A stretch of 53,120 bases of DNA, taken from the NCBI RefSeq assembly GCF_003334255.1, contig NZ_QOWU01000036.1. One strand, given 5' to 3'. The translations under genes were made by a program, and so were the position numbers. The notes under the pieces are model-generated. The model did not search any database, was not told the DNA's origin, and was given only the letters and a program-made list of their open reading frames with translations. This DNA comes from Escherichia coli. Its GTDB lineage: Bacteria > Pseudomonadota > Gammaproteobacteria > Enterobacterales > Enterobacteriaceae. How positions within the stretch are numbered: position 1 is the first letter of the stretch; every line of letters starts with the position of its first letter. This document shows positions 36,201-39,040 of this stretch, piece by piece.

Positions 36201-37388
36201 TTATACAATTCGCGCAAAACCGGCGTCCAGATCGGCAATCAGATCGTCGACATCTTCCAGACCAATATGCAGGCGAATCAAGGTCCCGCTAAAATCGATC
36301 TCGCCTTGTGGGCGAATGGCGGCGATATGTTCTGGTTGATTTGCCAGGATCAACGATTCATACCCGCCCCACGAGTAGGCCATGCTGAATAAACTGAAGT
36401 TATCCAGATAGTTCGCCAGCTCTTCATTATTGAGTTTTTTCTTAAGCACAAAGGAAAATAGCCCGCTGCTGCCTGTAAAGTCTCGTTTCCAGAATTCGTG
36501 ACCTTTACTGCCAGGCAGAGCAGGGTGGTTAACTCGCGCAACTTGCGGATGTTCTGCCAGCCATTCAGCCACTTTCAGACTGCTTTCATGATGTTGACGC
36601 AAACGCACACCTAATGTGCGCAGGCCACGGCTGGTTATATAGGCGGTATCGGCATCGACCATCTGGCCCATCAGATAGGCATTTTCCCGTAGCTGCTCCC
36701 AGCAACGGGCATTGCACACGGCAGTGCCAATCATCGCATCTGAATGCCCAACCAGATATTTGGTGGCGGCTTGAATAGAAACATCGATGCCAAAATCCAG
36801 CGCCTTAAACAGCACACCGGCTGCCCAGGTGTTGTCGATCATAATGATGGCATCCGGCACCACACTGCGTACGGCGGCAACAATCGCCGGAACGTCGTGG
36901 ACTTCCATGGTGATGGAGCCTGGCGATTCCAGAAACACGATTTTAGTGTTTGGCTGCAGATGCTTAACGATATCGGCACCAATCAGCGGATCAAACCATG
37001 ATGTCGTTACGCCCAGTTTGCTGAGGATTTTGCTACAGAAATCCTGACTCGGTTCATAGGCGGTGTTGGTCATCAACACATGATCGCCCTGTTCGATAAA
37101 AGCAAGAATGGAATTAGCAACCGCTGCCGCCCCGCAGGGAAATAGCACGCAGCCTGCGCCACCTTCCAGTTCACACATCGCTTGTTGTAAGGAGAAATGG
37201 GTTAACGTTCCGCGCCGTCCATAGAACAACTCTCCATTGGCGCGATTACGTGTCGCGTGTTTTTTGGCTTCTACACTGTCAAAGACCAGCGAAGAAGCGC
37301 GCTGAATCACGCTATTTACCGCGCCGAGAGTGTATTTTTTGCTGCGTCCTGCATTCACCAGTTGAGTATCAAGCTTTTTGTCCGCCAT
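36201..37388 (-). CDS. metC: Cystathionine beta-lyase
   Basis: ORF 36201..37466 trimmed to [15 protein letters not shown] (395 aa); PLP-dependent enzyme. Confidence 0.95.
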
Positions 37389-37406
37389 GTCGGGATTCCT
37401 GTTTTT

Positions 37407-37424
37407 ATACGTCTGGATGTCTAA
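37407..37424 (-). promoter_or_regulatory. Candidate tandem MetJ boxes upstream of metC
   Basis: Minus strand reads AGACATCC-AGACGTAT, two adjacent 8-mers resembling the AGACGTCT metbox. Confidence 0.5.
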
Positions 37425-37638
37425 ACTAGCATGAATATTCGCGGGCGCATCCTGAAGAATTGGCATAAAGCAGAAAATTTTCGCAAATGGCGTGCTGGTG
37501 ACTTTTTACTGCGTAAACGCAAGGAAAAGAAAGCAAAGGTACGGCAGTATGCAAATAGTAATGAGAACGACTATCAATTCGACGTCGTTTTGATATTATT
37601 ATGCGCAGATTTTGTGACTTGCGTCCTGGAGATACACA

Positions 37639-38373
37639 GTGGGTAATAATTTAATGCAGACGGACCTTTCCGTCTGGGGTATGTATCAGCACGCCGATAT
37701 TGTCGTTAAGTGCGTGATGATTGGGCTTATTTTGGCCTCCGTAGTCACCTGGGCAATCTTCTTCAGTAAGAGCGTAGAGTTCTTCAATCAGAAGCGTCGC
37801 CTTAAGCGCGAGCAGCAACTGCTGGCTGAAGCGCGTTCCTTAAACCAGGCCAACGATATCGCCGCTGATTTTGGTAGCAAAAGCTTAAGCCTGCATTTGC
37901 TCAATGAAGCGCAGAATGAGCTGGAACTGTCAGAAGGCAGCGACGATAACGAAGGTATTAAAGAACGTACCAGCTTCCGTCTGGAGCGTCGGGTCGCCGC
38001 AGTGGGTCGTCAAATGGGCCGCGGTAACGGCTATCTGGCAACCATCGGCGCGATTTCTCCGTTCGTTGGTCTGTTTGGTACGGTCTGGGGCATCATGAAC
38101 AGCTTTATTGGTATCGCGCAAACGCAGACCACTAACCTGGCAGTCGTTGCGCCGGGTATCGCAGAAGCTCTGTTAGCAACGGCAATCGGCCTCGTGGCAG
38201 CGATTCCTGCGGTCGTTATCTATAACGTATTTGCACGCCAGATTGGCGGCTTTAAAGCGATGCTGGGTGATGTTGCAGCGCAGGTATTGTTGCTGCAAAG
38301 CCGTGACCTGGATCTGGAAGCCAGCGCCGCTGCGCATCCGGTTCGTGTCGCACAAAAATTACGCGCAGGATAA
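37639..38373 (+). CDS. exbB: TonB-system energizer ExbB
   Basis: 244-aa ORF MGNNLMQTDLSVWGMYQHADI..., GTG start. Confidence 0.95.
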   Translation: MGNNLMQTDLSVWGMYQHADIVVKCVMIGLILASVVTWAIFFSKSVEFFNQKRRLKREQQLLAEARSLNQANDIAADFGSKSLSLHLLNEAQNELELSEGSDDNEGIKERTSFRLERRVAAVGRQMGRGNGYLATIGAISPFVGLFGTVWGIMNSFIGIAQTQTTNLAVVAPGIAEALLATAIGLVAAIPAVVIYNVFARQIGGFKAMLGDVAAQVLLLQSRDLDLEASAAAHPVRVAQKLRAG

Positions 38374-38379
38374 TATCCG

Positions 38380-38805
38380 ATGGCAATGCATCTTAACGAA
38401 AACCTCGACGATAACGGCGAAATGCATGATATCAACGTGACGCCGTTTATCGACGTGATGTTGGTTCTGCTGATTATCTTTATGGTGGCGGCACCGTTAG
38501 CGACGGTAGATGTGAAGGTGAACTTGCCTGCTTCTACCAGCACGCCGCAGCCGCGCCCGGAAAAACCGGTTTATCTGTCGGTGAAGGCAGACAACTCGAT
38601 GTTTATCGGTAACGATCCGGTCACCGATGAAACAATGATTACGGCGTTGAATGCGTTAACCGAAGGCAAGAAAGACACCACCATCTTCTTCCGAGCGGAC
38701 AAAACCGTCGATTACGAGACGTTGATGAAGGTAATGGATACGCTGCATCAGGCGGGTTACCTGAAGATAGGTCTGGTCGGCGAAGAAACCGCCAAAGCGA
38801 AGTAA
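38380..38805 (+). CDS. exbD: TonB-system energizer ExbD
   Basis: 141-aa ORF MAMHLNENLDDNGEMHDINVTPFIDVMLVLLIIFMV... Confidence 0.95.
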   Translation: MAMHLNENLDDNGEMHDINVTPFIDVMLVLLIIFMVAAPLATVDVKVNLPASTSTPQPRPEKPVYLSVKADNSMFIGNDPVTDETMITALNALTEGKKDTTIFFRADKTVDYETLMKVMDTLHQAGYLKIGLVGEETAKAK

Positions 38806-38809
38806 AGTA

Positions 38810-39040
38810 GAATTGCCTGATGCGCTACGCTCATCAGGCCTACAAAATCTATTGCAACATGTTGAATCTTCGTGCGTTTGTAGGCCGGATAAGGCGTTCA
38901 CGACGCATCCGGCATTAGGTGCTCAATGCCTGATGCGCTACGCTTATCAGGCCTACAAAATCTATTGCAACATGTTGAATCTTCATGCGTTTGTAGGCGG
39001 ATAAGGCGTTTTCGCCACATCAGGTAAGAGTGAATTCACA
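38810..39040. repeat. REP/BIME array with two near-identical ~90-nt units in tandem
   Basis: GCCTGATGCGCTACGCT(C/T)ATCAGGCCTACAAAATCTATTGCAACATGTTGAATCTTC(G/A)TGCGTTTGTAGGC occurs twice (period ~113 nt) with GCCGGATAAGGCG palindromic units. Confidence 0.85.

Follow-up and report, generated by a model that had tools for sequence, protein, structure and literature searches.

MetJ is a ribbon-helix-helix dimer which binds DNA cooperatively, with one dimer on each 8-bp box, and which uses SAM as a corepressor. The MetJ operators of E. coli, which are those of metA, metB/metJ, metE/metR, metF, metK, metN, mmuP and ybdH/mtnE, are built, like the operator of metC, from tandem abutting 8-bp metboxes related to AGACGTCT, and they are also located, like the metC operator, beside the start of a methionine biosynthesis gene. 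The metC entry for strain K-12 was published as 'agacatccagacgtat', with 2 metboxes, a score of 18.92 bits and a distance of 18 nt from the start (Augustus & Spicer 2011; PMC3228920). The same work described a gel shift of the metC/exbB intergenic fragment by MetJ and tests of known E. coli operators as lacZ fusions, and it found no MetJ effect for exbB (PMC3228920). When the binding of MetJ to an 18-bp metC duplex was measured by fluorescence anisotropy, two dimers were bound, and the EC50 value was 96 nM with SAM versus 2900 nM without it (PMC2650099).

The Fur boxes of E. coli, including those of fhuA, fepA-fes, entC, cirA, fecI and tonB, have, like the Fur box of exbB, the form of a 7-1-7 inverted repeat (TGAnAAn-N-nTTnTCA), and they overlap the core promoter, as is predicted for the exbB box. 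In the work of 2007, 39 of the 42 strongest Fur clusters of Chen et al. overlap a sigma-70 promoter (PMC2189734). For exbB, these authors reported a Fur site of 19.1 bits at U00096.2 3150076, at −70 from exbB, which was confirmed by gel shift (Chen et al. 2007; PMC2189734). This site is one of 3 that are clustered within 31 bp, and it overlaps the Fur box that Eick-Helmerich & Braun had proposed. In a later study, exbB and exbD were placed in the Fur core regulon and were derepressed when fur was mutated in each of the nine strains studied (log2 fold changes of 1.9-5.5), and a Fur ChIP-exo peak for exbB was detected within the metC/exbB intergenic region in both MG1655 and W3110 (Gao et al. 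2023). Hence, the MetJ site at metC and the Fur site at exbB are already known and represent textbook regulation, and the analysis described here adds no new biology of MetJ or Fur.

The divergent metC/exbB intergenic region, as read from the sequence together with the list of open reading frames, covers 250 bp at positions 37389-37638 of the window, by which we mean the whole stretch of 53,120 nucleotides of E. coli DNA that was analysed. The genes and their ribosome binding signals were arranged as follows.

36201-37388, minus strand: metC coding sequence (cystathionine beta-lyase), from the ORF list, its translation, the annotation under BLAST hits and the K-12 annotation.
37397-37400, minus strand: putative Shine-Dalgarno-like AGGA of metC, 8 nt 5′ of the ATG, read from the sequence.
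37628-37631, plus strand: conserved Shine-Dalgarno GGAG of exbB, from the alignment.
37639-38373, plus strand: exbB coding sequence with a GTG start at 37639, from the ORF list and the K-12 annotation.
38380-38805: exbD coding sequence, downstream of exbB, from the ORF list and the K-12 annotation.

The metC ATG is the complement of 37386-37388, with its A at position 37388. A 451-bp query across the region found matches, annotated as metC and exbB, in 5,423 of 5,426 complete E. coli genomes. The K-12 counterpart is located at NC_000913.3 3151985-3152235, and the sole difference between the two intergenic regions is one T in a T-run, which is T5 in the window and T6 in K-12. An open reading frame of 71 aa at 37431-37646 on the plus strand spans the whole intergenic region; it was rejected as a gene, and is almost certainly not one, because it is not conserved, with many indels in the region between genera, and because the T5/T6 difference from K-12 (37503-37507) would shift its frame. 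The scan of positions 36900-38100 against Rfam with a permissive threshold detected no RNA family, which argues that there is no known riboswitch or sRNA in this interval. On the 3′ side of exbD (about 38810-39020), the translations of open reading frames contained repeated 'CRPDK...' and 'LQTHEDSTCCNRFCRPD' peptides, which we take to be typical of the REP/BIME palindromic elements in the intergenic DNA of E. coli.

On the metC side of this region, the following two features were assigned.

37407-37422, minus strand: MetJ operator of two abutting 8-bp metboxes, AGACATCC (37415-37422) and AGACGTAT (37407-37414), from its published identity, the PWM score and conservation.
37423-37431, minus strand: predicted extended −10 element of metC, TGcTAGTTT, which abuts the metbox array, from a motif conserved in the loci and in the alignment.

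The metbox array lies at −34 to −19 from the metC ATG, with 18 nt separating the array from the ATG, and its 16-mer is letter-for-letter the same as the published K-12 metC metbox array. The initial annotation, made from the sequence by eye, had pointed to tandem metbox-like 8-mers about 20-35 nt upstream of metC, and these are indeed the MetJ operator known from K-12. The two boxes, AGACATCC and AGACGTAT, agree with 13 of the 16 consensus positions, and a search for AGACGTCTAGACGTCT, the tandem consensus, in which up to 3 mismatches were allowed, returned a single occurrence in the 53-kb window, which was the metC site, against 0.08 expected. To score the array, a symmetrised 8-bp matrix was built from 27 published boxes of 8 other E. 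coli operators (PMC3228920 supplementary table), with metC left out. Using this matrix, the metC pair obtained 18.5 bits (9.1 + 9.4) and ranked first among 53,105 positions of the window. The maxima in shuffled sequences were 13.2 ± 1.6 bits, and a score of 18.5 bits was reached in 1% of the shuffles; for this score, as for the Fur score given below, the background is the 53-kb window and not the whole genome. The 8-mers which flank the metC metboxes in the same register scored below zero, which argues that this is a genuine two-box operator. The runner-up in the window, with 14.1 bits, was the tandem AGACGGCCAAACATAT at 26261-26276, inside or at the start of the ORF 26143-26880; this match is probably due to chance, because its score is within the range of shuffled sequence.

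To follow the conservation of the region, species-representative genomes were scanned for ExbB, which yielded 80 loci, consisting of 67 from Enterobacterales and 13 from Pseudomonas. A divergently adjacent metC was present in 55 of the 67 Enterobacterales loci, counted among those which could be evaluated. The data showed that a significant metbox pair (p ≤ 0.015 in shuffles) was present in 31 of these 55 loci, mostly from Enterobacteriaceae, which is in line with a published count of metC metboxes in 81 of 119 enterobacterial species. The pair was found in Escherichia, Citrobacter, Enterobacter, Kluyvera, Kosakonia, Cedecea, Pluralibacter, Shimwellia and Mangrovibacter, and it was located at 13-22 nt from the metC ATG in most Enterobacteriaceae and at 43 nt in Shimwellia. 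In the same scan of 55 loci, it was absent from Erwinia, Pantoea and Tatumella (Erwiniaceae), Dickeya, Yersinia, Photorhabdus, Xenorhabdus and Providencia, with Morganellaceae among the families named as lacking it. In the Serratia loci (L050, L052 and L053), which also belong to the 31, a different significant metbox pair, AAACGTCTGGATGGCT, was observed with a score of 16.3 bits at 60-73 nt upstream of metC, which is farther from the start than the pair of Enterobacteriaceae, and which may be an independently placed or a relocated operator. Of 32 loci with metboxes, 23 have the motif TGnTA(G/A)T(T/C)T directly next to the array, and a transcription start of metC would be predicted from its position at about 37414-37418, inside the MetJ operator.

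On the exbB side, two features were assigned as well.

37559-37579: Fur box TAATGAGAAC-G-ACTATCAATT, with the 7-1-7 core TGAGAAC G ACTATCA at 37562-37576 and its centre at 37569, from the PWM score, the published site and conservation.
37591-37599, plus strand: predicted extended −10 element of exbB, TGaTATTAT, from a conserved motif 3′ of the Fur box.

The scores of Fur sites were calculated with a symmetrised 21-bp matrix derived from 17 other K-12 Fur sites, with exbB left out; the coordinates of the training sites were taken from Table 4 of Chen et al. 2007 (PMC2189734), and each of them was checked against the quoted distance from the gene start. The consensus of this matrix, AAATGATAATCATTATCATTT, is the expected Fur motif. 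The best 21-mer, TAATGAGAACGACTATCAATT at 37559-37579, with its centre at −70 from the exbB GTG, scored 19.9 bits and ranked first among 53,100 positions of the window, and it fits the AT-rich inverted repeat of the 7-1-7 form (tGATAATnATTATCa). In the shuffled sequences the maxima were 11.7 ± 2.6 bits, and 19.9 bits was reached in 1.5% of the shuffles. The best site upstream of tonB obtained 11.7 bits with the identical matrix, which is below the exbB box. The search of the window with the classical 19-mer Fur consensus, allowing up to 3 mismatches, gave no match, and by hand count the exbB site agrees with this consensus at 13 of 19 positions; the 19-mer misses the box because it is too strict for such a site, for which the PWM and the 7-1-7 form provide suitable tests. 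The second-best match to the Fur matrix in the window, with 13.8 bits, was the near-palindrome AACTGATGATCATCATCATTG at 7120-7140, which is located in the short divergent region between a ZupT-like gene and its neighbor and has a score within the shuffle range.

The position of the best match was compared with the published site. At this locus, the coordinates of U00096.2 and NC_000913.3 differ by 1978, and hence the site of Chen et al. maps to position 37569 of the window, which is the centre of the best PWM match. The published score of 19.1 bits came from a model which included the exbB site itself, while the matrix used here excludes it. The Fur-like string noticed by eye near exbB, AATAGTAATGAGAACGACTATC at 37554-37575 on the plus strand, extends from −85 to −64 relative to the exbB GTG and contains 17 of the 21 bases of the best 21-mer, so that it does lie on the published Fur site, but its register was set about 5 nt too far to the left.

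The ChIP-exo peaks of Fur were also mapped to the window. The peaks at 3150091-3150113 in MG1655 and at 3150725-3150737 in W3110 (exbB start 3150640) correspond to positions 37532-37554 and 37542-37554, respectively, which places them 5-27 bp upstream of the 21-bp Fur box and not on the box itself. The coordinate system is consistent, because the yqjH peak from the same table (3214555-3214587; Gao et al. 2023) contains the Chen site 3214572. Starting from position 37551, the hexamers GCAAAT-AGTAAT-GAGAAC-g-ACTATC form an F-F-F-x-R arrangement. This could suggest that an extended Fur array exists at exbB, and that the ChIP-exo peak may mark the upstream border of Fur polymerisation.

The Fur box was present in all 67 Enterobacterales loci, with scores of 14.8-24.0 bits, and its sequence among them was nearly invariant as TAATGA(G/T)AA(C/T)-N-ACTATCAAT. 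Among Enterobacteriaceae the central base of the 7-1-7 repeat was G, T or C, with the flanking arms fixed, and the sequence around the box had diverged between families so far as to be unrecognisable. The motif TGnTAnnnT also occurred in 67 of 67 loci, and its start lay 25 bp downstream of the Fur-box centre in 61 loci and 27 bp downstream in the other 6; its variants, described as TGnTATnAT, were mostly TGATATTAT, TGATATGAT or TGGTATCAT. Both the Fur box and the −10 motif were kept in the loci without a neighboring metC. From this motif, the transcription start of exbB would be predicted at about 37605-37607, which would put the centre of the Fur box at about −37. A generic scan of positions 37300-37750 for sigma-70 promoters and terminators found no −35/−10 pair and no terminator, and hence the proposed promoters of metC and exbB are defined by the conserved extended −10 motifs alone. 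The exbB Fur box and the extended −10 together constitute an almost invariant module across the order Enterobacterales. In the Pseudomonas loci (L069-L081), a separate conserved Fur-like box, TAACAAGAATTACTTGCAATAAT, was observed about 330-470 bp upstream of the exbB match; it scored 10.8-17.0 bits with the E. coli matrix, and its sequence is unlike the enterobacterial box.

Taken together, these data suggest that the region contains two back-to-back promoters which work independently, each under a classical repressor site of its own, and we assign to this reading a probability of about 0.95. The predicted starts of metC and exbB are about 190 bp apart. The identity, matrix scores and conservation of the two sites, together with their published binding and regulation, are established, and from the conserved motifs we infer the −10 elements, the transcription starts and the geometry of occlusion by the two repressors. 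On the metC side, SAM-loaded MetJ dimers, one per 8-bp box, would bind cooperatively to the two-metbox operator at 37407-37422, which is placed directly downstream of the predicted extended −10 and covers the predicted start. Because the operator abuts the −10 element and covers the start, RNA polymerase would be blocked when methionine and SAM are plentiful. On the exbB side, Fe2+-Fur bound to the box centred at 37569 would occupy about −48 to −27 of the predicted promoter and thus cover its −35 region. Hence, exbBD would be repressed when iron is plentiful and derepressed when it is scarce, and this derepression would energise TonB-dependent uptake.

The alignment of 28 intergenic regions from Enterobacteriaceae contained one further conserved element beside the two operators.

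37506-37527: third conserved block TTACTGCGTAAACGCAAGGAAA, 22 bp, from the alignment and its fixed spacing to the Fur box.

The consensus of this block, which corresponds to about 3152096-3152117 of NC_000913.3, is TTACTGCGTAA(A/G)CGCAAGGAAA. In all 26 loci which carry the block, exactly 63 bp separate its start from the centre of the Fur box, whereas the spacing between block and metboxes ranges from 71 to 108 bp. The block is thus phased with the promoter of exbB and would be located near −90 relative to the predicted start. The 25 nt between the block and the Fur box are poorly conserved. In the loci examined, the block was absent outside Enterobacteriaceae, and within the 53-kb window it was unique. 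A literature search with its sequence returned unrelated primers only. The block contains the inverted repeats TTTAC-TGC-GTAAA and TGCGT-AA-ACGCA. The idea that it forms a distinctive RNA hairpin was rejected (fold of −8.6 kcal/mol, z = −1.4). To our knowledge, it has no convincing fit to the consensus of CRP, PurR, GalR, LexA, PhoP, RcsB, MetR or CpxR. The arrangement GTAAA-N5-GGAAA within the block resembles, as we take it, a CpxR site, and TTTAC-N3-GTAAA has what is presumably the T-N11-A form of LysR-type boxes; both are leads only.

The presence of this block bears on the possibility that a further regulator acts on the region beside Fur and MetJ, which could be either CpxR at a predicted site GGAAAagaaaGCAAA (37523-37537) or another factor at the block 37506-37527. 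The metC and exbB genes were both among those changed under Cpx-activating conditions, and the site GGAAAagaaaGCAAA was predicted by PSSM with a score of 9.98 (PMC9600279). On the other hand, the metC level in qRT-PCR was 0.06 in the cpxR deletion strain with pnlpE and 0.08 with pnlpE alone (PMC9600279), so the reduction of metC was just as strong when cpxR was deleted, and this speaks against a dependence on CpxR. Moreover, the second half of the predicted site, GCAAA, is not conserved between genera, and the site overlaps only the 3′ end of the third block. In published FNR ChIP-chip data, a peak annotated exbB/metC (U00096.2 3150195), for which no FNR motif was reported, maps to about 37451 in the window, on the metC side, and could also be considered in favor of an additional factor. 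For the block itself, the constant spacing to the Fur centre in 26 loci speaks for such a factor, but Pluralibacter gergoviae and Siccibacter lack the block and still keep the Fur box, the −10 element and the metboxes, and neither the tonB upstream region nor the surroundings of the 17 other K-12 Fur sites contained a meaningfully similar block. On balance, we consider the action of a further regulator possible, although rather unlikely. Still more tentatively, the block itself could be a candidate site for a regulator of the exbBD promoter, and it may already be assigned in RegulonDB/EcoCyc. If true, it would add a second, Fur-independent input to the expression of the Ton system, and it offers a concrete mutagenesis target for studies of Ton-system control.

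In the reading with two independent promoters, each repressor serves one gene. It could alternatively be proposed that the region is one integrated iron/methionine switch, in which MetJ also affects exbB or Fur also affects metC. Such cross-regulation would agree with the fact that both genes share the 250-bp region, with the MetJ shift of the whole metC/exbB fragment, and with the adjacency of metC and exbB in 55 of 67 Enterobacterales loci. However, the MetJ and Fur operators are about 150 bp apart, and each of them is about 150-190 bp upstream of the predicted start of the other gene. The exbB Fur box and −10 are unchanged where metC is not adjacent, and the metboxes have been lost in many lineages which retain the metC-exbB adjacency. 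The supplementary text of the Fur pan-regulon paper (Gao et al. 2023) does not name metC, the published MetJ work found no MetJ effect for exbB, and neither source gave evidence of cross-talk between the control of metC and of exbB. Hence, we regard cross-regulation as very improbable. The weakest explanation, that the MetJ and Fur sites resemble their short degenerate consensus sequences by chance and play no regulatory role, has some apparent support in the failure of the classical 19-mer to find the Fur box, in the length of the metboxes of only 8 bp and in the first matching of both sites by hand, but it is effectively refuted by the first rank of each site among about 53,000 positions using a matrix which excludes that site, by the occurrence of the Fur box in 67 of 67 loci and of the metbox pair in 31 despite diverged flanks, and by the published binding and regulation data for both sites.

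The initial annotation had described both sites as weak matches, which is not upheld by the PWM scans, because neither of the two (18.5 bits for MetJ and 19.9 bits for Fur) is surpassed by any other position of the 53 kb with the respective matrix, and the tonB box obtained a lower score than the Fur box of exbB. Its expectation of iron regulation of exbBD agrees with the published gel shift, the ChIP-exo peak and the derepression in nine fur mutants, and the comparison with published sites gave an identical metbox sequence and a coinciding Fur centre at −70. As judged from the sequence comparisons, both operators are under strong purifying selection. The main value of these results is calibration, as a reader who saw only the sequence located by eye two real operators, which are the strongest matches in 53 kb and coincide with published footprint-level data.

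The comparison with other MetJ operators showed that the per-box scores of metC (9.1 and 9.4 bits) are at the upper end of those among the E. coli operators. The metC operator differs from most of them in its size, since it has only two boxes, which is the minimum array, while most others have three or four; it has been described as the shortest natural MetJ operator (PMC2650099). Its metboxes are also restricted to certain lineages, unlike those of metB or metE. The exbB Fur box, with 19.9 bits, is inside the range of the training sites (19.3-29.4 bits). Its inner positions read GAGAAC/ACTATC versus the classical GATAAT/ATTATC, and these departures from the consensus explain why a plain consensus search misses the site. 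The conservation of this box is unusually strong, as it is nearly invariant across Enterobacterales. As a whole, the metC-exbB region resembles metE-metR and fepA-fes, where repressor sites are likewise located in a short intergenic region between two divergently transcribed units. However, in metE-metR and in fepA-fes the sites of one regulator serve both directions, whereas in metC-exbB there are two unrelated regulators, with one direction for each.
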